IMG/VR virus record: IMGVR_UViG_3300032050_000049
Location: 30,621 to 94,620 of that record
Strand: one strand, 5' to 3'
Length of the DNA stretch: 64,000 nucleotides
Source: a virus
Lineage: Duplodnaviria; Heunggongvirae; Uroviricota; Caudoviricetes
Position numbers and translations under genes: made by a program. Position 1 is the first letter of the stretch; the number at the start of each line of letters is the position of its first letter. The notes below the pieces were generated by a model. It had not been told where the DNA came from. It worked only from the letters and a program-made list of their open reading frames with translations, and did no database searches. Positions 4,307-59,406 of this stretch are shown one piece after another.

Positions 4307-4307
4307 T

Positions 4308-21869: not shown

Positions 21870-21881
21870 ATAATTATTTAT

Positions 21882-23006: not shown

Positions 23007-23019
23007 TATTTAATAATAT

Positions 23020-24054
23020 ATGGCAAATAAACGTATAACAGATTTAACCGAAGCAACTTTTGTAAGTGCGAGTAATTTTTATGTTGTGTATGATCCTACA
23101 GCTACACAAGATCAAAATGCTGATGGTTATACTGATTTTAATAAAAAAGTAAAACTAAAAAATATTTGTACCCAAGTAAGTCAATCAGCCATCACTTGGT
23201 TTGGTACAGGCGCAAATGGTGCTTTAAATACAACAGGTAGTGTTACTTTTACCACTACAAATGATCAAGAAGTATTTGTGAGAAATTATACATCTCTCAC
23301 AGTAAATGCTGGTCATACAATGACTGTAAGCAACAGATGTAGAGGATTGTTGATATATGTTGGGGGAGATTGTACTATAAATGGTACAGTAACAATGTCA
23401 GGCAAAGGAGCCAACTCGGTTGGAACAGCTGCTCATTATGTATATCAATCTAAAAATTACTATGGCAACTTTATTCCCCAATATCAATTTAACAGCGTAA
23501 AATTATATGGATCTGGTAGTGCCGGTGGACCCGCAAATACTGCTGGTAGATCCGCAGGCGAAGGTTATACAGGTGGTGGAGGCGGTGGAGGTGGAACTGG
23601 TGGTGCTGGTGCAGCAGGCACCAGTTGGAGTGGTGGATCAGGTGGAGGTGGTGGACCATCTGCAACTGCAGGCACTATAAATGGTGGTGCTGGTGGTAAT
23701 GGTACAGCTGCGAATACTGGTGGTGGTGCTGGTAATGGTGGTGGCAGTGCTGGTCCAGGTGGTATAGCTGGTGGTACTGGTACAGGTGGTTTGATTATTT
23801 TTGTGGTAAAAGGTACATTTACATTGGGAAATACAGGTGCAATAACTGCAAATGGTGTTGCGGGTGGAAATGGTAGTGCAGGAGGAGGAGGAGGTAGTGG
23901 AGGTGGAAGAATAGTTGTATTATACAATCAAAATTATATAAATAATGGTGGTACTATTACTGCAAATGGTGGAGCTGGTGGAGGAACTGCTCCAACTGCT
24001 GGTGGCAGTGGGGGAGCCGGTAGCATAACAATAAGAGAAATAGGAATTTGGTAA
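23020..24054 (+). CDS. Gly-rich solenoid-like paralog 3
   Basis: Same motif set (NRCRGLLIYVGGDCTING; GGGGSGGGRIVVLY). Confidence 0.7.
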   Translation: MANKRITDLTEATFVSASNFYVVYDPTATQDQNADGYTDFNKKVKLKNICTQVSQSAITWFGTGANGALNTTGSVTFTTTNDQEVFVRNYTSLTVNAGHTMTVSNRCRGLLIYVGGDCTINGTVTMSGKGANSVGTAAHYVYQSKNYYGNFIPQYQFNSVKLYGSGSAGGPANTAGRSAGEGYTGGGGGGGGTGGAGAAGTSWSGGSGGGGGPSATAGTINGGAGGNGTAANTGGGAGNGGGSAGPGGIAGGTGTGGLIIFVVKGTFTLGNTGAITANGVAGGNGSAGGGGGSGGGRIVVLYNQNYINNGGTITANGGAGGGTAPTAGGSGGAGSITIREIGIW

Positions 24055-24071
24055 AATATTTATAAAGTTAT

Positions 24072-25313: not shown

Positions 25314-25319
25314 AATTTT

Positions 25320-26543
25320 ATGGCTACACAAATATCAAGTTTAACAACACTAGTTAATGGCGTAAACAGTTATGATTGTTTTTTGCCATTGGTTGATCCA
25401 ACATTAGCATTAGATTCTCGTAATGTTAAAATTAGAATAAGTACCCACAATGAAATGTTCAGCAACAACTTTGCTGTAGCTAGTTTGAGCAGTTATGCAA
25501 ACTATTTTGGAACAGGCAAAGATGGTAGCTTAACCATAAGCAGCAGTGCTCAAGTAAGCGCTTCATTGAATAATATTAGTCGTGAATTTGGCGACCCAGT
25601 TATAAAAAACTTTCAAAATTTAACCATCGGCAGTGGTATATTATTTAGTCCACTAAGAGCTTGTAGAGGTATGATAATATATTGCACAGGCGATTTAACG
25701 GTGAATGGTACCATAAGTATGACTGGTAAAGGTGGAGGCGTTGGTTCTAAAGTCGCGTCTCCTATTGGATTTGCTACAAGCACCGATTCAAGATATGATT
25801 TGGTGGATGGCACATTATATTTCAATAATTTTTCATCAAGTACAGCGGGTGGTTATGGAATACCTACGCATTGGAATTGGGCGCCTAGTGGAAGTGTTTG
25901 GTTTAGGAATTATAAGATACGAGTGCCATTGAGCGGAAGTGTTGACGGTGGCAATGGTGCATCGACCGCTGCGGCTTCGGGTAATGCGGGATCAGCTGGT
26001 ATATTTAGTTGTGGTGGCGGCGGTGGTGGTGGTTCCGGAGAATCGCAGTATGGTACTTTTGGATCAGGAGCTTCTGGAGGCAGAGGAACTATATTTTCTG
26101 GTGGTGGCGGTGGAGGAGGCGGCGGCGGTGGATGTTGTGGTGGCAATGTACCTGGTACATCTGGTATTCTTGAAAGAGGAGGAGCAGGGGGAGCTTCTCC
26201 TAACGGCCCAGCGGGTGGAGGAGCGGGAACTACAACTACTGGTGGAAACGGTACATTAGGTGTTGGGGGATTATTAATATTAATTGTACGTGGAAATATA
26301 ATAATTAATGGAACTATTAGTTCAAATGGAGCTAGTGGTGGAAACGGAGTACGTATTAGTAAAGGATCTGGTGGAGGAGGTGGAAGTGGCGGTGGTCGAA
26401 TAATTATAACTTATGGCGGTACATACACTAATGCGGGTTCCGTTGTTGCAAATGGTGGATCAGGTGGTTCTGCCAGCTCTGGCGGTGGTCCAGGTGCGTC
26501 TGGTGGTGCTGGATCTATAACTACAAGAAAGATACATATATGA
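25320..26543 (+). CDS. Gly-rich solenoid-like paralog 5
   Basis: Close paralog of 24072..25313. Confidence 0.7.
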   Translation: MATQISSLTTLVNGVNSYDCFLPLVDPTLALDSRNVKIRISTHNEMFSNNFAVASLSSYANYFGTGKDGSLTISSSAQVSASLNNISREFGDPVIKNFQNLTIGSGILFSPLRACRGMIIYCTGDLTVNGTISMTGKGGGVGSKVASPIGFATSTDSRYDLVDGTLYFNNFSSSTAGGYGIPTHWNWAPSGSVWFRNYKIRVPLSGSVDGGNGASTAAASGNAGSAGIFSCGGGGGGGSGESQYGTFGSGASGGRGTIFSGGGGGGGGGGGCCGGNVPGTSGILERGGAGGASPNGPAGGGAGTTTTGGNGTLGVGGLLILIVRGNIIINGTISSNGASGGNGVRISKGSGGGGGSGGGRIIITYGGTYTNAGSVVANGGSGGSASSGGGPGASGGAGSITTRKIHI

Positions 26544-26908
26544 GAGATAAAATTATAATATATAGCGTTCATGACAAAACGAGCAGAGAATTTGTTGCTG
26601 CATATGGTAACAGAAACGACGTTACTGTGTTGGAAGATGACGGATATAGTGTTCGAATAAAATATCCATACATTAGTGCTTTTCCAACTGTAATAATAAA
26701 TACACCTTCATATACGGAGTCTTTTATTGTAGATGAAGGTGGAGGCGGTGCATTTGTAAATTTAGATTCTATTGGAAATGAAACAATAGTGCCAGAAGAT
26801 GTAGAATATATTAGATCTCCTAAAGATTGGAATGAAGTACAACAACGTATTGATTATTGGGAAAACAAAGTGCCCAATTGGAAACAAACTGATACTAGAT
26901 ATTTATGA
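26540..26908 (+). CDS. Hypothetical protein; paralog of 28174..28503
   Basis: 'IHDK.SREFVAAYGNRNDVTVLEDDG...RIDYWENKVPNWKQTD' is shared with the 28174 protein. Confidence 0.55.
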   Translation: MRDKIIIYSVHDKTSREFVAAYGNRNDVTVLEDDGYSVRIKYPYISAFPTVIINTPSYTESFIVDEGGGGAFVNLDSIGNETIVPEDVEYIRSPKDWNEVQQRIDYWENKVPNWKQTDTRYL

Positions 26909-27579
26909 CAAGATATACCATTTTAGGCGAACGTAGATCAGGTACTAATTTTTTGCAACATTGTATAACTGACAACTTCAATTTACAATTAGATTGGTTA
27001 AAAGGATGGAAACATTTTTTTGGATGTAATGGTTATGAAGATAAATTGAAGAATAACCAAGACGTAATATACTTGTGTATTGTTAGAAATCCAATTGATT
27101 ATTTTGTATCATTTTATAATTCTAAATTGATGCAAAGTGAAGAACGTACAAAAGATATTGAAACGTTTTTATTATCAGAATTTTATTCAGTTTATAACTA
27201 TAAAAACGGATTAATTGACGTATCAGACGACTATAATTTTAAAAATAACAATAAGCGTTACAAAAACATATTTGAAATGCGATCCGTTAAATGTAAATAT
27301 TTGTTAGATGATATGCCTAATTTAGTGAGTAAATATCATTTTATAAGATATGAAGATTTAAAACATAATACTAATACTGTATTGAATACAATTAGTGATA
27401 AATTTAATCTTATAAAAAAGAATGACAATTATTTAATAAATACAAATTATGTCGGTGTAAAAATTAATGGAGGTGTTATAACAGAAAATTATCAAGTTGA
27501 AGATAAAATAAAACAGATAATATATAACAATATAGATTTATCGACAGAACATAGAATGGGTTATTTGACCGATATATGA
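26905..27579 (+). CDS. Putative PAPS-dependent sulfotransferase
   Basis: 5'-PSB-like 'ILGERRSGTNFL' and 3'-PB-like 'VRNPIDYFVSFY'. Confidence 0.6.
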   Translation: MTRYTILGERRSGTNFLQHCITDNFNLQLDWLKGWKHFFGCNGYEDKLKNNQDVIYLCIVRNPIDYFVSFYNSKLMQSEERTKDIETFLLSEFYSVYNYKNGLIDVSDDYNFKNNNKRYKNIFEMRSVKCKYLLDDMPNLVSKYHFIRYEDLKHNTNTVLNTISDKFNLIKKNDNYLINTNYVGVKINGGVITENYQVEDKIKQIIYNNIDLSTEHRMGYLTDI

Positions 27580-28139
27580 AATTATACTCATATGATATAA
27601 CTGAATTTAATTTTAAAGAGCAATTACAAACTGTTTTGAACGTGTCTAATTTAGATGATTTGGGGGAAAACAAAGATAAAGAGAAACTGTATTCTGAGTA
27701 TATTTTGGGTAAACAGTTTTTAGATATGTATGTACAGTTTATAAAAAAATATGTTAGAAATTTGTACGATGACGTTATAGCATATCAAACTAAACCAGTA
27801 TGTAGATTGGTATATAAAAATAAATTAAATATGCATAAACTTCATAAAGACAAGTGGTATAGAAGAAATACTATTTATAGTGATATGCAGATAGATAATA
27901 TTTTTTTACCATTTACAAATGCTTTTGATACAAACACAATTTGGACTGAATCAGTTGAAGACAGTCACGATTTTTTTCCGATAAATTGTGATTACGGACA
28001 ATTTGTACACTGGGATGGTTGCAATTTACTTCACGGTAATAAATTTAATAATACTAACAAAACAAGACTGAGTATAGATTTTAGAGTTTATAAATACAAA
28101 AATTTATTACACCCAGAGTATTCTTTATTGAATTTTTAG
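27576..28139 (+). CDS. Hypothetical protein with a weak HxD...H...RxS (Fe/2OG dioxygenase-like) pattern
   Basis: 'SHDFF', 'LLHG', 'RLSIDFR'. Functional call is speculative. Confidence 0.5.
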   Translation: MKLYSYDITEFNFKEQLQTVLNVSNLDDLGENKDKEKLYSEYILGKQFLDMYVQFIKKYVRNLYDDVIAYQTKPVCRLVYKNKLNMHKLHKDKWYRRNTIYSDMQIDNIFLPFTNAFDTNTIWTESVEDSHDFFPINCDYGQFVHWDGCNLLHGNKFNNTNKTRLSIDFRVYKYKNLLHPEYSLLNF

Positions 28140-28173
28140 AAGAAAAACTATTTATTAGTTACACAAAGAGATT

Positions 28174-28503
28174 ATGAGAGATACAATTATAATACATAAT
28201 ATTCATGACAAAGCGAGTAGAGAATTTGTTGCTGCATATGGTAACAGAAATGATGTTACTGTATTGGAAGACGACGGACTAAATGTACGTTTAGCGTTTC
28301 CTTATATCAGCGCTTTTCCTACTGTTGTAATACCCACACCATCTTATGAAAATACAGATGAAAATGGAACAGTAACCCAAATCGAAGGATCTATAGAATA
28401 TCTAAGAGCACCTGAAGATTGGAATACAGTACAAACACGAATTGATTATTGGGAAAACAAAGTACCCAATTGGAAACAAACTGATAGTAGATACAAACAA
28501 TAA
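28174..28503 (+). CDS. Hypothetical protein; paralog of 26540..26908
   Basis: About 60% identity with the 26540 protein. Confidence 0.55.
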   Translation: MRDTIIIHNIHDKASREFVAAYGNRNDVTVLEDDGLNVRLAFPYISAFPTVVIPTPSYENTDENGTVTQIEGSIEYLRAPEDWNTVQTRIDYWENKVPNWKQTDSRYKQ

Positions 28504-31417: not shown

Positions 31418-31605
31418 TTACTTACATTCTCTGGTCCATTTGATGTATGAATACCCAAATACTTTACCTTGGTCAAATCCATAGGCATCTTGATGCGTTT
31501 CCAATCCCATAGGGCTGGTAGATCACTATCATCAACAGCTTCCCATTCAATTTCCAATACAATTTTAGCAGATTTAGTTTTATTATTCATAACTTTCACG
31601 GTCAA
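31402..31605 (-). CDS. Hypothetical protein (67 aa)
   Basis: ORF. Confidence 0.4.
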   Translation of the reverse strand: MTVKVMNNKTKSAKIVLEIEWEAVDDSDLPALWDWKRIKMPMDLTKVKYLGIHTSNGPENVSNWMGN

Positions 31606-32680
31606 TGTTTGTCACATACGGAAATCTGGGCAGTTCATCACCAGGTGTAAGATTAAAATATTTCACCGTAGCACTCTTTCCAATAAGTTTATTTTTATTC
31701 TTCAAGAGTTCTTTTAGATATTCCCGAGTGCCTTTGATATTACTATGGAACTCAATTCCCTTATGATTCTTGAATACCATATATCCAGCCATACCACTCT
31801 TGTTGCCTATTCCTTCAACAATATCAAGAATTTTGAATTCACTATCTTGAAATTCTTTACGCTTGAGTAGGTATTTACTGCGCTTGTTTTCATATGGCCC
31901 ATCGGTACGAACCATCTGACCTTCGTAACCTTCGTCAATGTACTTTTCATACAACTCATTCAAATGTGTAATCGTGTCCACAAGGTGAGTCGGAACACGA
32001 CGAACCACATTGTTATTAACAAGATAAGTAGTAATGTCAGCATTACGATCACTAAAAGTCTTCTGTACAATCCAGTCATATACCCAATATTGAATATTCT
32101 TTGCACTCTCAGTCAAATCTTCTGGTGTAGGTTTGGTCTTCTTTACCAAACTACAAATAGCATTAAAATCATTGGCAAACTTATCCGCATACAACTCACC
32201 ATCAAGAATTGCATTTGGGAATTTAACAAAGAAATCCTTCAATGCTACCAATACGTGAGGAGCTGAAACAATAGGTTTACCATTACGACTCCACATACCA
32301 TCTTTCTTTACAACACAACGAATGCCATCCAACTTGGGTTGACTATAAACAGGATACTTCAAATCATCCTTATAATCGTCATAGTTCTTTGCCAACATTG
32401 GCTCAGTAAAACTAACTCCATCAATATCCGTGATTTTTTCAAAGTAACCACTTTCTTTCTTTTTCTTCCAAGTGGCTTTGGCTTCTTTTACAGCTTGATC
32501 TTCATTGGAAGTAGCATTCTTTTTGCCGGTATTTTTACCAACACAAAGAGTCCATTCTGTAATTTGAATAGCCCCATCAAGCTGACCATAATGGGTACGA
32601 TACTTGTTGCCATCAACTTCGATGGTCCAAGTTTGAATAGCACCCGTATTTGTACGGGCGAATAACATAGGTAGTTTCAT
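31583..32680 (-). CDS. ATP-dependent DNA ligase (small, T7- or Chlorella-virus-sized)
   Basis: Motif I 'KLDGIRCV' (KxDG). 365 aa with adenylation and OB-fold layout. Confidence 0.75.
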   Translation of the reverse strand: MKLPMLFARTNTGAIQTWTIEVDGNKYRTHYGQLDGAIQITEWTLCVGKNTGKKNATSNEDQAVKEAKATWKKKKESGYFEKITDIDGVSFTEPMLAKNYDDYKDDLKYPVYSQPKLDGIRCVVKKDGMWSRNGKPIVSAPHVLVALKDFFVKFPNAILDGELYADKFANDFNAICSLVKKTKPTPEDLTESAKNIQYWVYDWIVQKTFSDRNADITTYLVNNNVVRRVPTHLVDTITHLNELYEKYIDEGYEGQMVRTDGPYENKRSKYLLKRKEFQDSEFKILDIVEGIGNKSGMAGYMVFKNHKGIEFHSNIKGTREYLKELLKNKNKLIGKSATVKYFNLTPGDELPRFPYVTNIDRESYE

Positions 32681-34609: not shown

Positions 34610-35035
34610 TTAATTTTTTACAATTTCACCCTTAGCATCACTATACCACACTTCACCCACATTAAATTGCTTGACCACACTTTGACAACCACAACACGGC
34701 TTGCTGTTGTTCAACTTACCCGTTCGATCCACTCTAAGTACAACCATTTTAAAATCACTCAGATTCTCACGACCACTCTTCATACACACACTCAACTCAG
34801 CGTGAAGTCCAACAAGCTGATGGTTTTTATAATCATATTCCAAAGTCTTGGGATGACTCTTACAGCTGTTTGTACCAATATGTACAATTTTACCACATCG
34901 AATCAAAAAAGCTATATGACTACACCTATGCTCAATGTTGAGCGGACACATAGCCTTAGCAATGTCAATGGTACGCTTCAGAATCTTGCTGTTCATTACT
35001 AAACTCATACTACCATCGACTTTATAAAAAATCAA
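34610..35035 (-). CDS. CDA-fold zinc deaminase (cytidine, dCMP or tRNA deaminase-like)
   Basis: 'HAELSV' ... 'PCCGCQ' (H-A-E / PCxxC). Confidence 0.6.
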   Translation of the reverse strand: MIFYKVDGSMSLVMNSKILKRTIDIAKAMCPLNIEHRCSHIAFLIRCGKIVHIGTNSCKSHPKTLEYDYKNHQLVGLHAELSVCMKSGRENLSDFKMVVLRVDRTGKLNNSKPCCGCQSVVKQFNVGEVWYSDAKGEIVKN

Positions 35036-35086: not shown

Positions 35087-35794
35087 ATGGAAAACCTTTA
35101 TGTTGAAAAAATACACAATTCGATTGCCAAAGAATTGATTGTTAAACATCATTATACACACAAGTGGACCATAGCCGAGTTGTGTATCGGAATTTACGAC
35201 AAAAGCAAACGTAGTGTATTTTTTGACGTTCCTACGCTGGTTGGCGCAGTTGTATTTGGACCCACTGCTGGCGCAAATGTGGCTAGAAGTGTGTCTCCAC
35301 TATTAAATCATTCCAATTTATGGGAATTGAAACGATTGTGGGTAGCAGATGAATTGGGTAAAAATACTGAAAGTTGGGTTATTGGTCAATGTTTGAAATA
35401 TATCAAACAACATCACAGTGAAATAAAGTGTTTGATCAGTTATGCTGATCCTGATGCTGGACACATTGGTACCATATATCAAGCTACCAATTGGCTGTAT
35501 CAAGATATTGAAAGACGCAAAGGCACTAGTGGTTATATTGTTAGTTTTGACGGTGGTATTAAATGGCAACACTCACGTACATTATTCAACAAATATGGAA
35601 CATTCAACTATAATAAATTGGTGGAAGTGTTACCCAGACCATTTAAGATCAAAGAATTATCAGTTAAAGAACGATATATTTATCCTTTGGGAAGCAAAGT
35701 GGAAAAGAAAAATCTGATTAAAAGTTTGAATTATCCCATTATAGAATATCCCAAACTCAAATCAGATAAAGAAACTGTAGTGGAATTTAATTAA
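35087..35794 (+). CDS. Hypothetical protein on the opposite strand within the minus block; weak GNAT/Mom-like resemblance (speculative)
   Basis: 'KHHYTHKW', 'WELKRLWVADELGKN'; orientation anomaly. Confidence 0.55.
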   Translation: MENLYVEKIHNSIAKELIVKHHYTHKWTIAELCIGIYDKSKRSVFFDVPTLVGAVVFGPTAGANVARSVSPLLNHSNLWELKRLWVADELGKNTESWVIGQCLKYIKQHHSEIKCLISYADPDAGHIGTIYQATNWLYQDIERRKGTSGYIVSFDGGIKWQHSRTLFNKYGTFNYNKLVEVLPRPFKIKELSVKERYIYPLGSKVEKKNLIKSLNYPIIEYPKLKSDKETVVEFN

Positions 35795-38045: not shown

Positions 38046-39056
38046 TTATTCCTTACTTCCAAGTAGGTAAGTATTGCTAATAGCCTTGAAACTAAACTCC
38101 CGTTCAAGACCACGAACAACTACACCTTCACGGTCAACACCCATATTCAATACACTCTTACCTTCAGCATACTTCAACATATTATCAACCAAGTTTTCAT
38201 TGGGTAATACATATCCATACTTTTCAAGTACAGGTACCATTGGCACTTCCAACCTAAACAACAACCACTCCAGTTCATCAAAGAACATACGACGACCCTT
38301 ATCAATGTCATAACCAGTAAAGAAAAACAACTTGTGGTCGCTCAATCCATACAAATTACCATTGATATTTGAACCAATCAATTCTCCCTGAAGCGCAATG
38401 TTCTTGCCATACTTAGTCAACTTATCCTTCAACTCAAGCATATTAGCCATACGCCATAGACTATTGTCATTGGTTTCAGTCAACTCCCAATTACGTCCAC
38501 AAACACCAAATACACCATTATTGAAGTAACAAGTGAAACTAGTACCATCCAACTTCTCAGTGATATACACTCGTTCTCCAACAGGCACAAAACCAATGTC
38601 ACTTTCAAAGTTCTGAATACGAGTTTCATCCGTCTTTGGAATAAAACTAGGAAATGTACCCTTGATCTTTCCAGCCAATTGAGCAGGAATAGGAGGTTCA
38701 TACTTGACAATATCAAGAGCCTCTGTCAAATCATCACCTTCCTTTGGATCAATTATACCATCTGGAATTGGAGTCAATAGACCTTGACTCAATTGTCCAC
38801 GCAACTTGATGGTCTTAAGACGAAATCCTTCAGCGGTTCCCATACGCTTGAAACTACTCTTACGCAAGAATTCAAACTGAGGTCGGATAGGTAAGAAGCT
38901 GTCAATTTCATAATAAACAGCCAAGTCACCTACCTTATATTCTCCAACTTTCACGACTACATTCCACCCCTTTACCTTAGCCACAACAATGGCATCAGCA
39001 CCAACAATAGGTTGAATGTCAACAATCTTTACAACACTAGCTAACTTACGTTCCAT
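38046..39056 (-). CDS. ATP-dependent RNA ligase, DraRnl/DRB0094-like with N-terminal OB-like domain
   Basis: Motif I 'EKLDGTS'. N-terminus 'VVKIVDIQPIVGADAIVVAKVKGWNVVVKVGEYKVGDLAVYYEIDSFLP'. The ATG at 39054-39056 follows 'AAAGGA'; the ORF-track start at 39098 is a TTG overlapping the upstream gene. Confidence 0.65.
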   Translation of the reverse strand: MERKLASVVKIVDIQPIVGADAIVVAKVKGWNVVVKVGEYKVGDLAVYYEIDSFLPIRPQFEFLRKSSFKRMGTAEGFRLKTIKLRGQLSQGLLTPIPDGIIDPKEGDDLTEALDIVKYEPPIPAQLAGKIKGTFPSFIPKTDETRIQNFESDIGFVPVGERVYITEKLDGTSFTCYFNNGVFGVCGRNWELTETNDNSLWRMANMLELKDKLTKYGKNIALQGELIGSNINGNLYGLSDHKLFFFTGYDIDKGRRMFFDELEWLLFRLEVPMVPVLEKYGYVLPNENLVDNMLKYAEGKSVLNMGVDREGVVVRGLEREFSFKAISNTYLLGSKE

Positions 39057-39072
39057 ATTTATCCTTTCTAAA

Positions 39073-39390
39073 TTAATAAGAGTCAAACTCAACCTCAAGT
39101 GAATTGAAATTGATAGTAGACGGATCTACATTCAAATCAATACCACCATCAACAACAAAAACCTTCAAATCCTTCTTAATCTCGGTAGAAGGTCCACCAC
39201 TACAGCTACAACCAGAGCTATAACACCAAGTGACGTTACCATCCTTGTCTACACCAACACCCTCATAAGAGTGATGACCATAACCCCAATTCTCATTCTC
39301 AATCTCCTTGAAAATGACAACGATATCATCATCAAACTTGCTCTTAGGAAGAGCGTCCCAATTCTGTACAATGTAATCTACGATATTCAT
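39073..39390 (-). CDS. Hypothetical protein (105 aa)
   Basis: ORF with upstream promoter motif. Confidence 0.45.
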   Translation of the reverse strand: MNIVDYIVQNWDALPKSKFDDDIVVIFKEIENENWGYGHHSYEGVGVDKDGNVTWCYSSGCSCSGGPSTEIKKDLKVFVVDGGIDLNVDPSTINFNSLEVEFDSY

Positions 39391-40682: not shown

Positions 40683-41327
40683 TTAATGATGTTTATCTTG
40701 CTTAACGTGATTCTTGTTCATCATAATCTTCTGAATCTCTGGAAAAGACAACGGCTTGCCGTGACCATCCCAACCCACATCCAGAATTTTATTGTCTGGG
40801 TTATCAAGTTGAGTAGTTGGATTGGTATAGTGGCTGTGACCACTCAACTGCCAAGCACCCTTTTGCATCTGATTAAAAATCTGATGTGGGTAATGATGAA
40901 TAACAATCATATGACCATTTACAATTAGTTCCTTGTAATAACCCAGATAAGTTATCTTACCAACTGCATATGGATACACTTCAATATCTTTACCATATTC
41001 AGTTGCAATAGCTTCTTCATACAATCTACGAATACAACTGTTATGATTACCCCAAATATAAGCAATATTTTGACAATTGATTCGTGCTAGAATTTCATTG
41101 AACTCTGGAGGGGTAATGTTTAGACAAAAATCACCCAGATGAATTAGTGTATCTTCTGGACGCACTACTTCATTAATCTTTGCAATCAAAGCATCATCGT
41201 GTTCATAACGATCTTTATAACCTCTAGCTTCAAATATGAAACTTTGGTTATGCCGGAAATGAGTATCACTGGTAAAGAATACCTTGTGACTATCATTATG
41301 TGTTAGTTTTAGAGGTCTTTCAAACAT
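40683..41327 (-). CDS. Calcineurin-like metallophosphoesterase (phosphatase partner of the Pnk-type kinase)
   Basis: 'SDTHF', 'GDFCLN', 'GNHN' metallophosphatase motifs. Confidence 0.7.
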   Translation of the reverse strand: MFERPLKLTHNDSHKVFFTSDTHFRHNQSFIFEARGYKDRYEHDDALIAKINEVVRPEDTLIHLGDFCLNITPPEFNEILARINCQNIAYIWGNHNSCIRRLYEEAIATEYGKDIEVYPYAVGKITYLGYYKELIVNGHMIVIHHYPHQIFNQMQKGAWQLSGHSHYTNPTTQLDNPDNKILDVGWDGHGKPLSFPEIQKIMMNKNHVKQDKHH

Positions 41328-41778
41328 AAATCATTACATCAATTCCTTCATTAAAGGATGGATCTTCATATTTTGATAGCATCCTATCAATAATATTTGT
41401 AGGCACAACTCTACCACCTTGTTCTCCTCGTTTCTTGTTTCTTTCAATTAATCCTTGACGATCCATCTTGAAAACAATAGCAACTACTTTTGCACCATAT
41501 TTCTTTGCAGTCTTAATATAGTCACTACGTTCCTTACGGTTTACACTGGTTGCGTCAACCAATACATTTTTACCATCTTTTAGAAATTCGTCAACCTTTC
41601 TTTTGATGTGACCGAAAACAAGTGGGGTAACAGTTTGATCTTCTTCACTTTTACCATATACAGCACGTAGTGAATCACTACTTAGATATTCAATATCTTT
41701 GTCTTTAATAAAGTTTTTTGCATATGTGGATTTACCACTTCCAGGCAATCCAACCGCAATATAAAGTGTATTATTCAT
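41320..41778 (-). CDS. Polynucleotide 5'-kinase (T4 Pnk kinase-domain-like)
   Basis: 'GLPGSGKST' Walker A, 'SSDSLR', 'NRKERS', 'ERNKKRG...VP'; collinear with the T4 Pnk N-domain. Confidence 0.75.
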   Translation of the reverse strand: MNNTLYIAVGLPGSGKSTYAKNFIKDKDIEYLSSDSLRAVYGKSEEDQTVTPLVFGHIKRKVDEFLKDGKNVLVDATSVNRKERSDYIKTAKKYGAKVVAIVFKMDRQGLIERNKKRGEQGGRVVPTNIIDRMLSKYEDPSFNEGIDVMIYV

Positions 41779-44170: not shown

Positions 44171-45262
44171 TTAGTTCTTTAAGACTTGGAACATCAACTT
44201 CTTATATTCTTCCTTACCTAATGGACGATTATCCAAGAGTTTAAATACAAAAGCAGCTCTGTTTGTTTCACCATAAGATGAAATAACCAGTTGTGCTTGT
44301 TCTTTTCTGGTAGGCAATGAACGAAGTCTGTTATTCACAAAACTATTCATACCATCCACAATCTTGTTTACTTCCTTCTTACCATCCGCAATACGGCTAA
44401 TAGTACCTTTAATTTGTTCTGCTAACTCGAAATCAAAGGTGGTAAAGATATAGTTATAAAAAGTGTTGTAGTCAGGCATACCCTGTTCCAACCACACATC
44501 CATAATTTTTTCCAGTGAACTAAGTTCAGACTTTAGATGATGTAACAGGAGATATTTAGATGCTTTAATCTTATGAATAGTCTGATCATTCTTACTATAT
44601 AAGCATACGCCTTCTTTATCTTGCCACTTATCTACAATCTGTAACATATCAGTTATATCAGTAAAAGTATAGATTTCCGGACGAAGTAAATCATACTTCT
44701 TAGCCATAGCATCCAACATATCTTGTTGTGCAAGTGAATAGTTGATATGATTAATAAAACCAATCAACTTCCACATAGGTTCATCGCCATACGATAACAC
44801 AATTTTATTGATTGGAGACAGCCATTCCCAAATGATAGAATAACCCCAAGTATCATTGTTATCCTGTAACTTACTTAGAATAGTTGACTTGAACAATTCT
44901 AACTCAAAACCATTAGCCATAGTAGAAGCATCAACAGTTCCACGGGTTCGTAGAATATATTGACCCTTATACTTGCTAACAATCAAAGTGCTACCGTCCA
45001 ACTTTTCAACAACAGTGCAATGCTTCAATGAAGCAGGAACAGGAAAGTGTTCAGGATTCTCCCCATAGTTAGTAAACTTCGGAAATGATGCACTAATAAC
45101 TTCACCCTCATAATTCACAACCACACTACGCATGTGCTTGTTGTCTTGCGTCCACTTAGTGCCAATATTTTGGGGTTGAATCAAATGGACAATTTCACCG
45201 AAAGCGTGGAAATGGTGCACCATAAATTGAGTGCGGTCAACCTTATCTATGTCAATTTTCAT
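44171..45262 (-). CDS. RNA ligase, T4 Rnl1-like
   Basis: Motif I 'VVEKLDGSTL'. N-terminal 'NYEGE...PKF.N.GENPE' parallels T4 RnlA 'FEMDGEKP...EKFFNLNENP'. Confidence 0.7.
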   Translation of the reverse strand: MKIDIDKVDRTQFMVHHFHAFGEIVHLIQPQNIGTKWTQDNKHMRSVVVNYEGEVISASFPKFTNYGENPEHFPVPASLKHCTVVEKLDGSTLIVSKYKGQYILRTRGTVDASTMANGFELELFKSTILSKLQDNNDTWGYSIIWEWLSPINKIVLSYGDEPMWKLIGFINHINYSLAQQDMLDAMAKKYDLLRPEIYTFTDITDMLQIVDKWQDKEGVCLYSKNDQTIHKIKASKYLLLHHLKSELSSLEKIMDVWLEQGMPDYNTFYNYIFTTFDFELAEQIKGTISRIADGKKEVNKIVDGMNSFVNNRLRSLPTRKEQAQLVISSYGETNRAAFVFKLLDNRPLGKEEYKKLMFQVLKN

Positions 45263-52563: not shown

Positions 52564-53244
52564 ATGAAAATAATATCTGGAATTTATAAACTCACATCAC
52601 CGTCCGGAAAATGTTATATTGGTCAAAGTAAAAATATATATCAAAGATTTCGTGATCACAAAAGAGCTAATAAACATAAACATTGCAAGTTATATGTTGC
52701 AATTAAAAAATACGGATACGAAAATTTTAAAAAAGAAATAATAGAAGAATGTAACAAAGAAATTTTAGATAAAAAAGAACAATATTGGATTAAATATCAC
52801 AACTCCGTTGATAACGGATATAATTGTGATTATGGTGGACAAATTCATAAAGAATTTGGAAAAGAACATAGAGAAAAATTACGTGCAGCATTTTTAGGAA
52901 AGTATAATGGCAACCAAAATATTGAATTTTACATAGATAACATTTTGTATAAATCAATTGGTGATGCTAGTAAAAAATTAAATATACCCCCTAAAACGAT
53001 ATATAATAGGTTAAATTCTAAAAACATAGAATTTGATAATTATAAATATAAAGATGTAAATTTAATACCAACCAGAAGTATTAGAAAATACGCATCACAA
53101 CCTTTTATTATTGATGGTATAAAATATACCACTATAAAAGAAGCGTCTGAAGTATTAAATATACCATCATCAATATTGAGAAGAAAATTAAAATCTGGTA
53201 AATTGTCAAATTCATCATATATTACACCGCAACATCCGCTTTAA
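52564..53244 (+). CDS. GIY-YIG homing endonuclease (I-TevI-like, free-standing)
   Basis: 'GIYKLTSPSGKCYIGQSKNIYQRFRDHK' GIY-YIG core plus NUMOD-like basic C-terminal repeats. Orientation opposite to neighbours. 3' end overlaps the thyA 3' end. Confidence 0.8.
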   Translation: MKIISGIYKLTSPSGKCYIGQSKNIYQRFRDHKRANKHKHCKLYVAIKKYGYENFKKEIIEECNKEILDKKEQYWIKYHNSVDNGYNCDYGGQIHKEFGKEHREKLRAAFLGKYNGNQNIEFYIDNILYKSIGDASKKLNIPPKTIYNRLNSKNIEFDNYKYKDVNLIPTRSIRKYASQPFIIDGIKYTTIKEASEVLNIPSSILRRKLKSGKLSNSSYITPQHPL

Positions 53245-54373
53245 TTGTTGGGTGTGATTGATAATCTATTAACTTAATATCATCATATTTAAAATCAAAT
53301 AATGATTTTATTTCAGGATTCAACCACAATTTTGGTAACTTCATTGGTTCTCTTGACATTTGTAGTTTAATTTGATCCAAATGGTTCGTATACAAATGTG
53401 CGTCACCGATTGAGTATGTCAATGTACCAGTAGCCATATTGCTTACATGCGACATCATTGCTACCATCAGTGCATATGATGCTATATTAAATGGCTTCCC
53501 AAGAAAAATATCATTTGATCTGATTGTCATCATTAAATTCAAACGACGGGTTGGAATATTAGCGTCATTTAATACTTTTTCATTCATTTCAGGCACAGAT
53601 ACCCATCCTTTATTTCCTCCTGATTTTCTGTATAAATCAAATCGTTCTTCCAGTGTCAATTCTTCTGTATTAAAAATTAGAAAACAATGACAGGGCGGTA
53701 AGGCGCAATGATCTACCCAATGTGGATGCCATGCTGATACGATCATACGACGATCATCTGGATTGGTTTTTAGCTTGTCAATTACTTTTTGTAGTTGATC
53801 TATTCTACCAAAAAACCACGATTCGGCATAATCACCTTTTGTTCCACTCACAGTACCTTTGGGACAAGTGCTTGCATCATTATCATTCACGGTGGTATAA
53901 AACGGAAAATTTCTCCACATTCCGCCATACGTTCCTTCACCTAATTCACCCCATAAAAGTGCAAAATTTGGGTCATCTTTAATTTCTTGAATGAAACGCT
54001 CTTGAGTCCAAGAAGACCGCCACCGATTCCCACCCAAATCGCCATACGGATTTGCTTCATAGGTTTCTTCAGGATGAGATTTGCAAAAATCAATATAGCG
54101 TTTATATGCCCACTCATTCCAGATTCTAACGTTATTGTCAACCAGATACTTGATATTTGTATCACCACTAATGAACCACAGCAATTCGTGAACAATAGCT
54201 GGCCAATGAACTTTCTTTGTGGTTAATAGAGGAAATGCATTTAGATCCACATTGTATTTGGCTTGAGCACCAAAAATGCCAATGGTATCTACCCCAGTTC
54301 TGTTCTTTTTAAGTTTTCCGTTTGTCAAAATATCATTGACAATTCTGAAATATTCTGTGTCTACTTTGTTCAT
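53222..54373 (-). CDS. thyA: Thymidylate synthase (ThyA, long form with two insertions)
   Basis: 'RTGVDTIGIFG', 'DDRRMIVSAWHP', catalytic 'PPCHCFLIFN', 'FNIASYALMVAMMSHV', 'GDAHLYTNH'. Confidence 0.85.
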   Translation of the reverse strand: MNKVDTEYFRIVNDILTNGKLKKNRTGVDTIGIFGAQAKYNVDLNAFPLLTTKKVHWPAIVHELLWFISGDTNIKYLVDNNVRIWNEWAYKRYIDFCKSHPEETYEANPYGDLGGNRWRSSWTQERFIQEIKDDPNFALLWGELGEGTYGGMWRNFPFYTTVNDNDASTCPKGTVSGTKGDYAESWFFGRIDQLQKVIDKLKTNPDDRRMIVSAWHPHWVDHCALPPCHCFLIFNTEELTLEERFDLYRKSGGNKGWVSVPEMNEKVLNDANIPTRRLNLMMTIRSNDIFLGKPFNIASYALMVAMMSHVSNMATGTLTYSIGDAHLYTNHLDQIKLQMSREPMKLPKLWLNPEIKSLFDFKYDDIKLIDYQSHPTIKADVAV

Positions 54374-54411
54374 ATTATTTAGTATACATTATAACTTTGT
54401 GTAGGTCAAAT
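54371..54411 (-). promoter_or_regulatory. Internal promoter TTGACC-17-TATACT for thyA, inside the DHFR 3' end
   Basis: ATTTGACC TACACAAAGTTATAATG TATACT AAATAAT ATG. Confidence 0.5.
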
Positions 54412-54866
54412 TCTTTTACAACTTCTTTATGTGTAAACGTATGTTCAAACTCAGGCATAAATGTATCACCATCATAATTACCATTTATATGCGTAACATA
54501 GAACTCCTTAATGTATGGTAACAACTTAATATAAGTTTTAGCACCACCAGCAACAATCAAATAGTCTTTTCTAAATTGACTATATGATTCAAAATCTGTC
54601 ATTGTAATCAGTTGACCAGTCATAGAGTTATTGTTTACCAGATATTGATTTGGATTTGCAGCCATTATTTTGTCTTCTTTGACTAGTACAAGACATTCTC
54701 TATTTTTTAGAAGTGGTAGTGTATCAAATGTATTTTTACCTACCACAATAGTATTACCAACGGTAAATTCTTTAAAGTGCTTAAAATCCTCTTTTATAGA
54801 TGGCCAGGGTAATCCACCATTTTTGCCTATAACCCTATTTTGTGCCATTGCAAGTATTGCTTTCAT
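54375..54866 (-). CDS. folA: Dihydrofolate reductase
   Basis: 'ILAMAQNRVIGKNGGLPWP...DFKHFKE.T.GNTIVVGKNTFDTLP'. Stop directly abuts the thyA start, in frd-td order as in T4. Confidence 0.85.
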   Translation of the reverse strand: MKAILAMAQNRVIGKNGGLPWPSIKEDFKHFKEFTVGNTIVVGKNTFDTLPLLKNRECLVLVKEDKIMAANPNQYLVNNNSMTGQLITMTDFESYSQFRKDYLIVAGGAKTYIKLLPYIKEFYVTHINGNYDGDTFMPEFEHTFTHKEVVKEFDLHKVIMYTK

Positions 54867-55300
54867 TGTATATAATTTAAAATTAGTTTGATTGATTGTT
54901 CAATAGAATTTTTATCGGTGTCAATATCAAGATAGTTATTTAATGGCGGTTCATAATAATCCACCATCTTACCCTCCCTTAATCTGTTACTATGTAGATA
55001 TACTTCTTTTACAATATGTGTAGAATCATTTTTTAATGAGTCTCTTAAATTTCTGAACGGAGATACTAACGACATTATTGTGTAATTATATAATTTGTTG
55101 CTAGTTTTTGCCATTTCTATAGCTAATCTCACATTACTTTTTCTGCCACTAATACTATAGTCTTTATTGTTACTAATACTACGTAACGTATCCCCATCAA
55201 TAGTTACAGCTGTACGATTTGTTTTTGTTAAAAGTGTTTCTAATGTTAACGCCAATGTGGTTTTACCACTATTTGGTTGACCTGTTAATATAATAATCAT
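54863..55300 (-). CDS. cysC: Adenylylsulfate (APS) kinase-like P-loop kinase
   Basis: 'LTGQPNSGKTTLA' and 'IDGDTLR...NKD..S...R..NVR...E.AK...SLVSPFRNLRD' parallel the CysC 'LDGDNVRHGLNKDLGFS..DR.ENIRR..EVAK...SFISPYR.DRD'. Confidence 0.65.
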   Translation of the reverse strand: MIIILTGQPNSGKTTLALTLETLLTKTNRTAVTIDGDTLRSISNNKDYSISGRKSNVRLAIEMAKTSNKLYNYTIMSLVSPFRNLRDSLKNDSTHIVKEVYLHSNRLREGKMVDYYEPPLNNYLDIDTDKNSIEQSIKLILNYIQ

Positions 55301-55944
55301 AACAATATTTTCTTTTCGTGTTTTACCACAACTTCAGGATGTACCCAAACATCAATACCACATTCTTTTACCAAATGACAAAAGCTTACGTCTTCCATTG
55401 TAAACTCCGTAACATTGCCAAATTGTTTCCAAATTGGTCTAAACCATGGATATTTCAATTTTTCAAATACACCCCGTTTTATAAGTATAAAGCCAAATCC
55501 AGTGTAGTCTACTGTAAATGGATCTTTGAATTGTTTTAATTTATCGAAAGTTAAAAATTCAAAACTACCATACTTCTTAAAATGATCTTCGTTCCAATCT
55601 TTTACAGTAGCATAGTGCGTACCATCTTGCATTAGATATAAACCAGATGCAATATCTTTCTTTATATTGAATAGCTTAATGAAGTCATCCACTTTGAACA
55701 TATTGTCACTATCAATCCAAAGTATATAATCATATTCGATTCTACCTTGCCATGGCTTTTGATTTTCTCCAGCATTAGAATCACCACCCAAACACATATT
55801 ACGTACATAATAGATGTTACACGATTCTCTACGAGAAAGTATAGGAGTTATTTTGTTATGAATACACCAATTATAAAATGGTATAAAACTATCTAACCAC
55901 TGACCAGAGAAATTATTGCCGGGTAAACAAATTATTAATCTCAT
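55297..55944 (-). CDS. Glycosyltransferase (DxD type)
   Basis: 'ILWIDSDNMF', 'ASGLY'; paralogous to the next gene. Confidence 0.55.
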   Translation of the reverse strand: MRLIICLPGNNFSGQWLDSFIPFYNWCIHNKITPILSRRESCNIYYVRNMCLGGDSNAGENQKPWQGRIEYDYILWIDSDNMFKVDDFIKLFNIKKDIASGLYLMQDGTHYATVKDWNEDHFKKYGSFEFLTFDKLKQFKDPFTVDYTGFGFILIKRGVFEKLKYPWFRPIWKQFGNVTEFTMEDVSFCHLVKECGIDVWVHPEVVVKHEKKILL

Positions 55945-56690
55945 GATTTAAAAAACAAATTGTTTTGTACAAACAAGTTACCTTTATAACCTTTCCAACC
56001 ATAGTGAGTCAAGTTACAAGTGGTATCTACATATATCTTACCACCGATACTTCTATAAAGATTACAAAAGCCATAATCTTCACTTTCATATTTCTTTGTC
56101 TTTTCATTTATTTTACATGGAAAGAAATCATAGAACTTATCCCCATATCCCATATACCCATCAATGTCATTCTTATATGCTATATTAGGCATTTCTCTAG
56201 AAATTTGATTGAAGACACGTTTCTTGAATAACATGAATCCAGTAGCAGCATAATTTACTTCTTCAATGTTTTTCATTTCGGGATTGAGTTTAATTTCTGT
56301 AGCAAAGTCGGTACATAGTTCTTCGTAATTATCACCGATCATTTCTGGTCCTTGTTTTGCTAACAACTTTACTTTAGACGAATTAATATACTTCTTGGGA
56401 TATAAACCTGAAATAACATCTTTATCAGCCTTTAACAATGAAAAGAAACTCTCGGGTTCAAATGATATATCACTATCAATGAACATCATATAATCACAAT
56501 CCGGTTGATTTAGAAAATTAGCAGCTGCAGCATTTCTAGCTCTAGCAATCAAACTTTCAAAGTATATACAATCCAAACTAAATGATATACCCCTACGTTG
56601 TCCCTCAAATATCAACTTCATCACACTAAACATAAAGTGTGATAGTACAGTATGATTATAACAAATCACAGGCAAATAAACTTTGGTCAT
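55941..56690 (-). CDS. Glycosyltransferase (DxD type)
   Basis: 'MMFIDSDISF', 'ISGLYP'. Confidence 0.55.
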   Translation of the reverse strand: MTKVYLPVICYNHTVLSHFMFSVMKLIFEGQRRGISFSLDCIYFESLIARARNAAAANFLNQPDCDYMMFIDSDISFEPESFFSLLKADKDVISGLYPKKYINSSKVKLLAKQGPEMIGDNYEELCTDFATEIKLNPEMKNIEEVNYAATGFMLFKKRVFNQISREMPNIAYKNDIDGYMGYGDKFYDFFPCKINEKTKKYESEDYGFCNLYRSIGGKIYVDTTCNLTHYGWKGYKGNLFVQNNLFFKS

Positions 56691-56923
56691 AGTATGATCT
56701 TTTCCTTCTCAAAATATTCAGTAACTTCATCATTCCAAGGCTTGTTGATGTCATCTAACTTATTAGCAATAGAACGCATTATATGTGACGGCCAGCAACC
56801 ATCATTACTTGGCCAGAAATAATAATAACCATCAACATCCATAATAAGTTCACCAACTAAATGATTATTCGGAGTCAGTACGTGGAACTTCTGGTTGTTG
56901 ATCTGTTTGTAAATTAGATTCAT
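56687..56923 (-). CDS. Hypothetical protein (78 aa)
   Basis: ORF. Confidence 0.35.
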   Translation of the reverse strand: MNLIYKQINNQKFHVLTPNNHLVGELIMDVDGYYYFWPSNDGCWPSHIMRSIANKLDDINKPWNDEVTEYFEKEKIIL

Positions 56924-57365
56924 TTTTTTCTAAAACAATATTTGTAGTACCCTCGTAATTTACCCCACCAATAACATTAATAATAAATTTGTTGGTGATG
57001 GTTCCCTCCAAGTTACTAGTAACAATATAACTCTCTTGTACGCTTCCGTCAAGAAAAAACACAATTTTGGTAGAACTTGATTCAAGTATCTTCAAGTCAT
57101 TTGTAACAGCATCCATCAAATAAACATCATCAAATGAACTATACATATTATAGTTTTCATCAAACGTAAGTTCAAACTCACGTTGTTGAAATGCTGCTTG
57201 ATGTTTGAGATTAATCAATAGTGTCTTTAAGTTTTCTCTAGCTTCAAAATATCTATTGTTACCAACTAGACTATCATAGTTGATAACAATTGCACCAATA
57301 ATACCAAGCAATATGGTTATGGCTAATACTAACTCTATTAGTGTAAATGCTTTATTGTTTTTCAC
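56865..57365 (-). CDS. Type IV pilin/pseudopilin-like protein
   Basis: N-terminal 'MKNNKA|FTLIELVLAITILLGIIGAIV' (prepilin-like leader, Glu at +5, hydrophobic helix). Position -1 is Ala rather than Gly. Confidence 0.5.
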   Translation of the reverse strand: MKNNKAFTLIELVLAITILLGIIGAIVINYDSLVGNNRYFEARENLKTLLINLKHQAAFQQREFELTFDENYNMYSSFDDVYLMDAVTNDLKILESSSTKIVFFLDGSVQESYIVTSNLEGTITNKFIINVIGGVNYEGTTNIVLEKNESNLQTDQQPEVPRTDSE

Positions 57366-58380: not shown

Positions 58381-59406
58381 TCAACGTATATAATAAAGAA
58401 CACGTTGCAAAACATATTGATAGGTATCAAACCATTTTTTATTACCCAACTGATATTTTGGTATCTTACTCAAGTCAATTGATTCACTATAAATTGCATA
58501 TGAACTTAAATAAGCATCATTACAATTGGCGTGTTGTTCATAATGATTAGGCATTGGTATCATCAACAATGGTTTGTTTTGATATATAGCTTCAGCACTT
58601 GTTTCAAATCCACCACTACATACTACTGCCTTACATACCTTCATCTTTTCTTGAAATAGTTTACCATCAAGATTAAATAATTTTAAATTTGGTAGTTCAT
58701 CATATTGTTTGGTTAATTTGGTAAAACAATGAATATTGATATCTGGATATTTTTTTGCTTGATTAATCAATTGCGGTAACATATCTTCATTCATTAGATA
58801 TACCAACACAAAGTCTTCTTGTTTGTGTGATACACTATAACTTTCACTTCTTAATATTGGAGGACTTGCAATCATAACATCATCATTAAATTCATAATAA
58901 CTTAATGCTACGATTTTGGATCTGATACTAGTGATTTTGTTTATGATATTTAAAAATAACTTTTGTACAGGATATCCATTGATTCGTGGATATATAATAG
59001 AATCCATTGCGTATTGATGTCCAAAGCTTACATACTTTATGTTTTTAAAGAATAATGCGGTTAGACCTACCAGTGGTTCATAATAGTTGAATATAGCATC
59101 TGGTTTTTCTTTTTGGATGATGCTACAGATTTTAATGAATGATACAATTAAGCGTGGTAATTCAAATGTGTTGTTCAATATGGTTTTCCAGATAACAACT
59201 CTACCTACACTATCAAATACAAAATCAAATCCATCATAGTCTACTACGTTAAATTCGTCTGTAAAATATTTAGATAACCCCCGTTTCTTTTTAGCTGCAA
59301 AAGCAGTTGTTACCTCAATGCCTTGCGATTGTAGATATTGTTTGGTTGCTATAGCTTGTGTAATGTGTCCATTACCTTCAGTTTGAACTCCGAATAATAT
59401 CTTCAT
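58381..59406 (-). CDS. GT28-family glycosyltransferase (UgtP/MGDG-synthase-like diacylglycerol glycosyltransferase)
   Basis: N-terminal 'QTEGNGHITQAIATKQYL' against UgtP 'ANYGNGHVQVAKTLYEQ'. C-terminal GT-B motif 'VCSGGFETSAEAIYQNKPLLMIPMPNHYEQHANCN'. Confidence 0.65.
   Translation of the reverse strand: MKILFGVQTEGNGHITQAIATKQYLQSQGIEVTTAFAAKKKRGLSKYFTDEFNVVDYDGFDFVFDSVGRVVIWKTILNNTFELPRLIVSFIKICSIIQKEKPDAIFNYYEPLVGLTALFFKNIKYVSFGHQYAMDSIIYPRINGYPVQKLFLNIINKITSIRSKIVALSYYEFNDDVMIASPPILRSESYSVSHKQEDFVLVYLMNEDMLPQLINQAKKYPDINIHCFTKLTKQYDELPNLKLFNLDGKLFQEKMKVCKAVVCSGGFETSAEAIYQNKPLLMIPMPNHYEQHANCNDAYLSSYAIYSESIDLSKIPKYQLGNKKWFDTYQYVLQRVLYYIR

Follow-up and report, generated by a model that had tools for sequence, protein, structure and literature searches.

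The stretch analysed here (the window) is a 64,000-nucleotide piece of a large tailed-phage genome, positions 30,621 to 94,620 of IMG/VR record IMGVR_UViG_3300032050_000049. At 54863–55300 on its minus strand it encodes a 145-aa protein which, judged by sequence and predicted fold, is a homolog of the APS-kinase family (PF01583; CysC), the enzymes that convert adenosine 5'-phosphosulfate (APS) into 3'-phosphoadenosine 5'-phosphosulfate (PAPS), the sulfate donor that cells use universally. In the phage protein the canonical lid is replaced by a short loop. The explanation preferred here, a serious possibility that stops a little short of being called probable, is that the kinase makes PAPS from host APS for one or more phage sulfotransferases, which would act on glycoconjugates likely to be tied to collagen-like fibres and built by the phage's own glycosyltransferases.

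The kinase and its shortened lid

The Pfam APS_kinase profile matched the 145-aa protein with 59.8 bits (gathering threshold, 21.1) over positions 4–107 of 152, and the motifs collinear with CysC that had been pointed out in an initial annotation of the window are therefore real. All of the best matches among solved structures were true APS kinases. A family profile, built from 84 diverse relatives of the kinase, recovered APS kinases with E-values from 2.8e-28 to 1e-13, while the next kinase family, PSTK, followed at 2e-6, and no thymidylate or dNMP kinase occurred among the family-profile matches. APS kinases led the kinase's match list by more than 20 orders of magnitude, the fold was nearer to APS kinase than to any other P-loop kinase family, and neither thymidylate kinase nor the T4 dNMP kinase was closest in sequence or in fold. 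The initial annotation had proposed an APS-kinase homolog, to be given up if the best matches fell among dNMP kinases and the CysC-specific residues were absent; this identification stands, because APS kinases are the best matches and thymidylate and dNMP kinases are missing from the family profile, and the DGD, Arg-Arg and (I/V)SP residues have been retained. The gene and its neighbours are more than chance open reading frames (ORFs), because homologs number in the hundreds and dN/dS against relatives is 0.06–0.25. Nucleotide and protein searches of GenBank phages with the operon and the kinase returned only ThyA fragments and two unannotated gut-phage contigs (∼27% identity), and no close cultured relative.

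The functional residues of the family are known from Mycobacterium tuberculosis CysC, in which K456 and S457 belong to the P-loop, D478 contacts a Mg-bound water, D480 is the base at the 3'-OH of APS, R483 and R497 bind the phosphosulfate (also reached by the backbone amides of I523 and S524), and F492 and the lid residue F576 sandwich the APS adenine (PMC4373884). Its lid (residues 552–581) directs R559 to the ATP adenine and K562 to the gamma-phosphate, and lid closure is essential (PMC4373884). In the phage protein the P-loop, TGQPNSGKTTLA (residues 6–17), includes the Walker A residues G7-Q-P-N-S-G-K13-T14; G7, G12 and K13 do not vary among the 84 family members, and conservation of T14 is at least 90%. 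The I34-D35-G36-D37 motif, conserved to at least 90%, provides D35 and D37 as the counterparts of D478 and D480. The phosphosulfate-binding residues correspond to R40 (invariant), R53 (at least 90%) and V79-S80-P81 (P81 invariant), and the core adenine aromatic F492 corresponds to Y48 (at least 90%). No member of the non-lid functional set (K13/T14, D35, D37, R40, Y48, R53 and V79/S80) falls below 90% conservation in the family, and some do not vary at all; N56 is also listed among the kinase's motif residues.

The lid is different. The kinase aligns to solved APS kinases in two blocks (query residues 3–105 with chain residues 25–127, and 115–142 with 157–184), which places a gap of ∼20 residues at the lid; the same deletion is seen in the family alignment, and the predicted model has no lid helices. 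The position is occupied by a loop, H103–P119 (HSNRLREGKMVDYYEPP), which carries R106, R108, K111 and Y116 and an R-x-R-E motif and is nearly invariant within the window's lineage. In the family as a whole, 75% of members have Arg at position 106 and 82% have Arg or Lys at 108; position 111 is aromatic in 62% (Lys in the window's lineage), and 116 is Tyr or Phe in 99%. The lid Phe, F576, has no aligned counterpart; Y116, or in most family members the aromatic at position 111, might replace it. Comparison with CysC structures, the check suggested at the outset, thus finds Walker A and DGD in place and no canonical lid, with nothing that corresponds to R559, K562 or F576. The protein had been noted to be shorter than cellular CysC, as it is, and its short length reflects the lack of an N-terminal extension together with the ∼20-residue lid deletion.

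The protein would seem to be a minimised yet functional enzyme, in which the short loop would do the work of the canonical lid: R106, R108 and K111 would take over from the lid Arg and Lys, and the lid Phe would be replaced by Y116 or some other aromatic. A comparable case is that of the adenylate kinases, which exist in short-LID and long-LID forms. Conversely, a non-catalytic relic, or a regulator that binds PAPS or APS in the manner of the allosteric domain of fungal ATP sulfurylase, which is APS-kinase-like, would accord with the absence of a lid whose closure is essential in CysC and with a profile score under the equivalog cut-off. Such a role is very improbable, because the catalytic residues are intact (across the family, the Walker A Lys and Thr and the two DGD aspartates show little or no variation) and the gene is under purifying selection; moreover, the replacement loop is conserved and basic, and the family is very widespread.

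Genomic contexts of the kinase family

In the window the kinase gene lies within a string of minus-strand genes. The string is headed by the small ORF p78 (56687–56923; no Pfam match), followed by the glycosyltransferase genes GTb (55941–56690; 249 aa) and GTa (55297–55944; 215 aa), the kinase, dihydrofolate reductase (DHFR; 54375–54866; PF00186, E 5.6e-30) and the thymidylate synthase ThyA (53222–54373; 383 aa; PF00303, E 5e-91). Four-nucleotide ATGA overlaps occur at all four junctions from p78/GTb to kinase/DHFR (p78/GTb, GTb/GTa, GTa/kinase and kinase/DHFR), and a single base separates DHFR from ThyA; the ORF coordinates, the overlaps and the position of the kinase directly upstream of DHFR-ThyA had been annotated exactly. 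No terminator-like site was found on the minus strand between p78 and ThyA, in a promoter and terminator scan that overall did not rise above shuffled expectation. Directly upstream of the string is a 166-aa protein with a prepilin-type N-terminal methylation motif (56865–57365, minus strand; PF07963, E 2.7e-5), which is kept in relatives.

Within the window's lineage (48–97% kinase identity), 22 of 27 loci have DHFR next after the kinase, and the stop codon of the kinase usually overlaps the DHFR start codon. In only seven of the 27 do GTa and GTb lie directly upstream of the kinase, inserted between it and the pilin-like gene; in sister loci that lack the pair, the pilin-like gene and the kinase abut, and the p78 homolog sits elsewhere. 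From this comparison, the adjacency of kinase, DHFR and ThyA is lineage synteny and the glycosyltransferase pair is accessory. The functional coupling of kinase and glycosyltransferases that the initial annotation had drawn from co-transcription is not supported, the pair not being an obligate partner of the kinase.

The recurrence of the kinase-DHFR(-ThyA) order in those 22 loci, down to 48% identity, together with weak PHROG matches to "thymidylate kinase" (E 1.5e-3), would suit a dTMP or dNMP (or deoxynucleoside) kinase with an uncommon origin, whose translation is coupled to that of DHFR and ThyA in a path from dUMP through dTMP to dTDP. Fold, residues and family context all lead to rejection of a thymidylate or dNMP kinase role, which is accorded very little probability. 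A part in DNA hypermodification, as a 5-hydroxymethyldeoxyuridine (5-hmdU)-kinase-like enzyme acting with ThyA and the glycosyltransferases, was also considered and rejected: the ThyA C-terminus ("...IKADVAV") resembles that of a canonical thymidylate synthase, the enzyme is paired with DHFR, and no search revealed similarity to that class of kinases. One apparent kinase-DHFR fusion (P0045; L209, 3241–3882) was discarded as a deletion variant, in which an in-frame deletion joins kinase residues 1–113 to about residue 21 of DHFR; the resulting 213-aa chimera, which retains both Pfam domains, probably represents a defective copy or faulty assembly.

ThyA itself is long, its 383 aa against the 266 positions of the Pfam model implying ∼115 aa of internal insertions; in the relatives L003, L008 and L009 some copies are shorter (287–300 aa). 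A GIY-YIG endonuclease-like ORF (52564–53244, plus strand) is oriented convergently with thyA and shares 23 nucleotides with its 3' end. The same convergence is seen in L012, L016–L019, L021–L022 and L209, and recalls the homing endonucleases of phage td genes.

The kinase family as a whole comprises proteins of 140–165 aa, with 276 close matches and 1,431 clusters at 50% identity (E ≤1e-3). Its signature, GQPx(S/A)GKT, occurs on at least 377 IMG/VR viral contigs, and many of the relatives are labelled adenylylsulfate kinase by JGI. In 70 of the 80 loci from beyond the window's lineage, the kinase has downstream of it a small nucleotidyltransferase (NTase; ∼116–133 aa) with the motif FIGRWQPWHxGH...ISATKIR, placed within 60 nucleotides in 65 of them. 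After de-replication of the contexts into 26 kinase clusters, the NTase was adjacent in 20 and a DUF2061 protein in 12, and a Sulfotransfer_3 gene lay just upstream in six. The recurring arrangement is a same-strand cassette of sulfotransferase, kinase, NTase and DUF2061, among lineages whose kinases are 45–67% identical to one another. In L027, which has the same cassette order, the sulfotransferase resembles NoeE; collagen-repeat proteins lie immediately upstream of the cassette in two loci (L125, E 2e-114; L082, E 1e-17), and behind it in L125 come GT9 genes and a GT4/GT9/FkbM-methyltransferase protein. A further cluster (C13; 233 aa, 11 loci) appeared sulfotransferase-like by eye and was not counted, hhalign having given it a probability of 15%. 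Kinase-NTase fusions were found in metagenomes and in cultured phages of Xylella, Stenotrophomonas and Xanthomonas, and kinase-HAD-phosphatase fusions also occur. Two of the cultured examples, Xylella phage Sano gp35 (L135; NC_042344.1, 15406–16143) and Stenotrophomonas phage DLP_6 AAY80_227 (L136), are labelled just "kinase" or "hypothetical" and are experimentally tractable members of the family. For DUF2061, a protein search returned only near-identical phage proteins, with no cellular architectures, and a literature search found nothing relevant to a link with sulfate metabolism.

The significant relatives of the NTase, in both PDB and NCBIfam, are exclusively NadM and archaeal nicotinamide mononucleotide (NMN) adenylyltransferases (E ∼1e-7), and an NMN-adenylyltransferase (NMNAT)-like partner leaves room for a substrate other than APS. 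The short lid might admit a larger molecule, so that the kinase would phosphorylate the ribose of another adenosine-5'-phospho-X compound (NAD-like or dephospho-CoA-like, for example), made by the adjacent NTase in most lineages and by the host in the window, following a logic like that of CoA synthase or NAD kinase, in which an adenylyltransferase acts before a ribose kinase. This alternative is rather unlikely overall and has several observations in its favour. The NTase adjoins the kinase in most of the loci and clusters counted above and is fused to it in several lineages, its similarity to ATP sulfurylase is faint, and the deleted part of the lid is the part that covers sulfate and adenine. 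In addition, the neighbouring DHFR uses NADPH, and a close relative, L001, has genes for NAMPT, Nudix and PRPP-synthetase proteins 5–9 kb upstream of the kinase. This L001 cluster (1207–6157; kinase 65% identical) is a NAD+ salvage set resembling NARP2; the window stops at 64000, short of the matching region.

The trio of kinase, NMNAT-like NTase and the small membrane protein DUF2061 is also formally analogous to NARP3, in which a phage NadR-like NMNAT plus nicotinamide-riboside kinase accompanies a membrane transporter, PnuC (PMC13464706). By that analogy the kinase would be a nicotinamide-riboside kinase of a NAD+ salvage pair, and the window copy a remnant of a counter-defence system; a NadR/NARP3-like role was rejected, again on fold, residues and family context, and is scarcely credible.

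A bolder proposal, doubtful as it stands, retains sulfate chemistry for the NTase. The kinase and the 116-aa NMNAT-like NTase, with or without DUF2061, would constitute an unrecognised minimal viral PAPS synthase, in which the NTase is an ATP:sulfate adenylyltransferase of a new type and the PAPS serves to sulfate fibre glycans. The window phage, in reduced form, would have retained the kinase, a sulfotransferase and the glycosyltransferases and would rely on APS from the host. Faint, sub-threshold matches to the Pfam ATP sulfurylase were obtained for 12 of 29 NTase members.

The same chemistry could serve another purpose, namely that of an auxiliary metabolic gene boosting assimilatory sulfate reduction in the host (APS to PAPS, to sulfite through PAPS reductase, to cysteine) for the synthesis of phage proteins. 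Where bacteria reduce APS directly, as many do, additional PAPS would bring them no benefit. The assimilation role is the published reading of phage cysC, based on 62 genes from large freshwater phages that are transcribed in situ (PMC10914622), and it accords with a kinase that is core to its lineage while the window-type sulfotransferase belongs to an accessory cassette. On the other hand, no cysH or other assimilation gene was present among the window ORFs examined, and in at least six independent lineages the immediate neighbour of the kinase is a sulfotransferase, not a reductase. Host assimilation, which fits the neighbours of the kinase less well than sulfation does, is considered unlikely.

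Sulfotransferase, glycosyltransferases and collagen-like fibres

The window is divided into a plus-strand half (1–29 kb) of tail-fibre-type proteins, with LamG, T7-tail-fibre-N, Gly-rich and collagen-repeat domains, and a minus-strand part (31–64 kb) of genes for DNA and RNA metabolism and accessory functions. The fibre half includes a 1207-aa tail-fibre protein with collagen triple-helix repeats (14242–17865, plus strand; PF01391, E 7.5e-50, nine stretches), which is a candidate target for modification enzymes. Farther along, at 20691–26543 on the plus strand, are five tandem paralogous Gly-rich proteins (344–413 aa) with conserved N-terminal halves, one of which (20691–21869) gave no match in a Pfam scan.

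Just downstream of these paralogs, where the fibre module ends, is a candidate PAPS-dependent sulfotransferase of 224 aa (26905–27579, plus strand), with the PAPS-loop-like motifs GERRSGTN and VRNPIDYFVSFY. Among the 18 members of its family, E9, R10, G13, T14 and R61 are invariant, as are the strings ERxSGT and VRNP; NCBIfam gave no match for the window protein. Its gene is overlapped by four nucleotides by that of a 2-oxoglutarate (2OG)-Fe(II)-oxygenase-like protein (27576–28139, plus strand), which matches part of TIGR04324, "sporadic carbohydrate cluster 2OG-Fe(II) oxygenase" (E 8e-8). The pair forms a presence/absence cassette (26540–28503, plus strand) between the paralogous small ORFs p122 and p109; in a comparison of loci L172, L174, L175, L178 and L183, it was cleanly absent from L178 and L183. 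Homologs of the sulfotransferase (31–39% identity, with an invariant RYKNIFEMR string) also occur on contigs labelled as giant-virus metagenome-assembled genomes (GVMAG), in loci L031, L032, L038, L040, L053, L143, L155, L157–L158 and L163–L167.

GTa and GTb share 25% identity over 165 aa (BLASTP E 2e-9), by which they are to be regarded as true paralogs, as had been annotated, and each contains IDSD (D78-S-D80 as the DxD of GTa; FIDSDI in GTb). Both have the GT-A Rossmann-like fold and the DxD metal/nucleotide-sugar motif, and they belong to phrog_1574 (E 1e-40 for GTb), a family of "unknown function". Scores against known families were below threshold: GTa reached 16.3 against 23.3 for GT2 (PF00535), and GTb 22.7 against 28.8 for Anp1/GT62 (PF03452; E 8e-5) and 14.3 against 23.3 for GT2, while NCBIfam matched neither. 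The GTa model (pLDDT 92.8) was nearest to Mnn9 (GT62), STIV A197, the collagen glycosyltransferases LH3 and ColGalT1 (GT25) and mimivirus R699. Identity of GTa and GTb to this group is only 12–21%, and both are far smaller. The setting differs from that of the collagen glycosyltransferases as well, in that the fibre repeats of the window are rich in Gly and Ser/Thr and lack hydroxylysine sites. A third enzyme, a GT-B glycosyltransferase of 341 aa from the same minus-strand block (58381–59406; PF13528 Glyco_trans_1_3, E 2.9e-27), is conserved in relatives with or without GTa and GTb, with synteny in L001, L008, L009 and L012.

In the preferred explanation, the 145-aa kinase would be catalytically competent and, during infection, phosphorylate the 3'-OH of host-supplied APS at the expense of ATP to yield PAPS, which the phage-encoded sulfotransferase or sulfotransferases would consume. 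The likeliest target would be a glycoconjugate on, or associated with, the collagen-like tail fibres, built by GTa, GTb and the GT-B enzyme. The comparisons establish family membership in both sequence and fold, the retained catalytic and phosphosulfate residues, the short, conserved and basic loop in place of the lid, purifying selection, and the presence of a sulfotransferase beside homologous kinases in several independent lineages. The window carries the same ingredients as the cassettes of those lineages (collagen fibre, sulfotransferase-like ORF, kinase and glycosyltransferases) in dispersed form. The explanation depends on four suppositions: the shortened lid must still allow catalysis, APS must be what the kinase phosphorylates, the PAPS must be used by the sulfotransferase of the window, and the fibres or their glycans must be what is sulfated.

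Several observations weigh against it. With TIGR00455 the kinase scored 68.3 bits, under the 138.7-bit equivalog cut-off, and all PRK subfamily cut-offs were failed. About 20 of ∼30 canonical lid residues are gone, including three with assigned roles (R559, K562 and F576), and in M. tuberculosis CysC the C556S change alone abolishes activity (PMC4373884). The small partner of the kinase in other lineages resembles NMN adenylyltransferases, not ATP sulfurylase. The window's sulfotransferase is marginal in its similarity, with 27.1 bits for Sulfotransfer_1 and 22.9 bits for Sulfotransfer_2, both just above the gathering threshold of 22, and its family profile found no convincing solved sulfotransferase in PDB (best E 0.07). 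It lies 27 kb from the kinase and belongs to a dispensable cassette; among 59 loci collected around sulfotransferases of its type, none had a kinase within 6 kb. Besides the window, one contig (3300042908_000899) has both genes; contigs without the cassette end before the expected kinase position, and the motif of the window-type sulfotransferase was not found on a 173-kb contig that bears the kinase. No recognisable ATP sulfurylase, NTase homolog or DUF2061 was found in the window or in the other DNA of the lineage examined, and the window has no APS source of its own. Finally, the gene-context evidence comes entirely from phage genomes, in which gene order partly reflects descent.

The initial interpretation, which had joined PAPS synthesis, sulfotransfer and glycosylation in a self-contained route, is thus partly supported. 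The sulfotransferase invoked for it is present as an ORF, with the reservations just given, and compact cassettes of sulfotransferase, kinase and glycosyltransferases in other phage lineages bear out the general link between these activities. The specific route is not borne out: the window encodes neither ATP sulfurylase nor another APS source, the NTase of most lineages is absent, and nothing supports an order in which sulfotransfer precedes glycosylation.

Other features of the window stand apart from the kinase. A Mom-family protein (35087–35794, plus strand; PF25680, E 6e-44) beside a deaminase-like ORF (34610–35035) suggests a DNA base modification system, separate from the present finding. 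An RNA-repair-like set on the minus strand includes a PHA02142-type RNA ligase, an AAA_33 polynucleotide-kinase-like protein beside a metallophosphatase-like ORF, and an Rnl1-like RNA ligase (38046–39098, 40683–41778 and 44171–45262). The homolog of the window's DNA ligase (31583–32680) is in two pieces ∼1.3 kb apart in L184 (3389–5820) and L186 (8295–10717), which suggests an intervening mobile element or intron.

Relation to known systems and significance

Compared with canonical CysC (EC 2.7.1.25; M. tuberculosis 4BZQ, Archaeoglobus fulgidus 7YQ0 and the kinase domain of human PAPSS1), the phage protein lacks the N-terminal extension, belongs to a family with GQPxSGKT in place of GLSGSGKS in the P-loop, and has one residue deleted after DGDxxR. 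The two-helix lid of ∼30 residues is represented by a loop of ∼17 residues with R-x-R-E, and the score is half the TIGR00455 cut-off. The 62 cysC genes of large freshwater phages, published as auxiliary metabolic genes (PMC10914622), are similar in being viral APS-kinase homologs of large phages, and the window gene is very probably of the kind counted in such surveys. These used KEGG-type annotation and a sulfate-assimilation reading; the lid deletion, the NTase and DUF2061 partners and the link to sulfotransferases and collagen fibres are not described there.

Animal PAPSS1 and PAPSS2, with an N-terminal APS kinase and a C-terminal ATP sulfurylase, have the same order as the phage fusions (P0168, P0195, P0223, P0175 and Xylella phage Sano gp35), in which a 3'-kinase precedes a domain of the HxGH adenylyltransferase superfamily. 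They differ in that the phage NTase is ∼116 aa long and NMN adenylyltransferase-like rather than a PF01747 ATP sulfurylase, and the window has no NTase. NadR and NARP3 share with the phage systems the combination of a P-loop kinase, an NMNAT-type adenylyltransferase and a membrane protein. Phage cysC as such is known; the short-lid architecture, the NTase, DUF2061 and HAD partners, and the association with sulfotransferases, glycosyltransferases and collagen fibres are not described in the literature searched. To our knowledge, virion sulfation has been described for no phage.

Viromics surveys count phage cysC among sulfur-cycling genes, on the assumption of canonical activity and a role in cysteine supply. 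At least a large class of these genes forms a distinct short-lid subfamily, which is found again and again beside genes for sulfotransferases, glycosyltransferases, collagen-like fibre proteins, a tiny adenylyltransferase and a small membrane protein. The family is also a natural experiment in how little lid a P-loop small-molecule kinase needs. Should the NTase make APS, no smaller system for PAPS synthesis than this pair would be known, and the pair would be useful for enzymatic regeneration of PAPS. If these kinases are active, they would point away from sulfate assimilation and towards the sulfation of glycoconjugates on the surface of phage or host; the ecological interpretation of these genes would then change, and a new chemical modification of phage receptor-binding structures would come into view.

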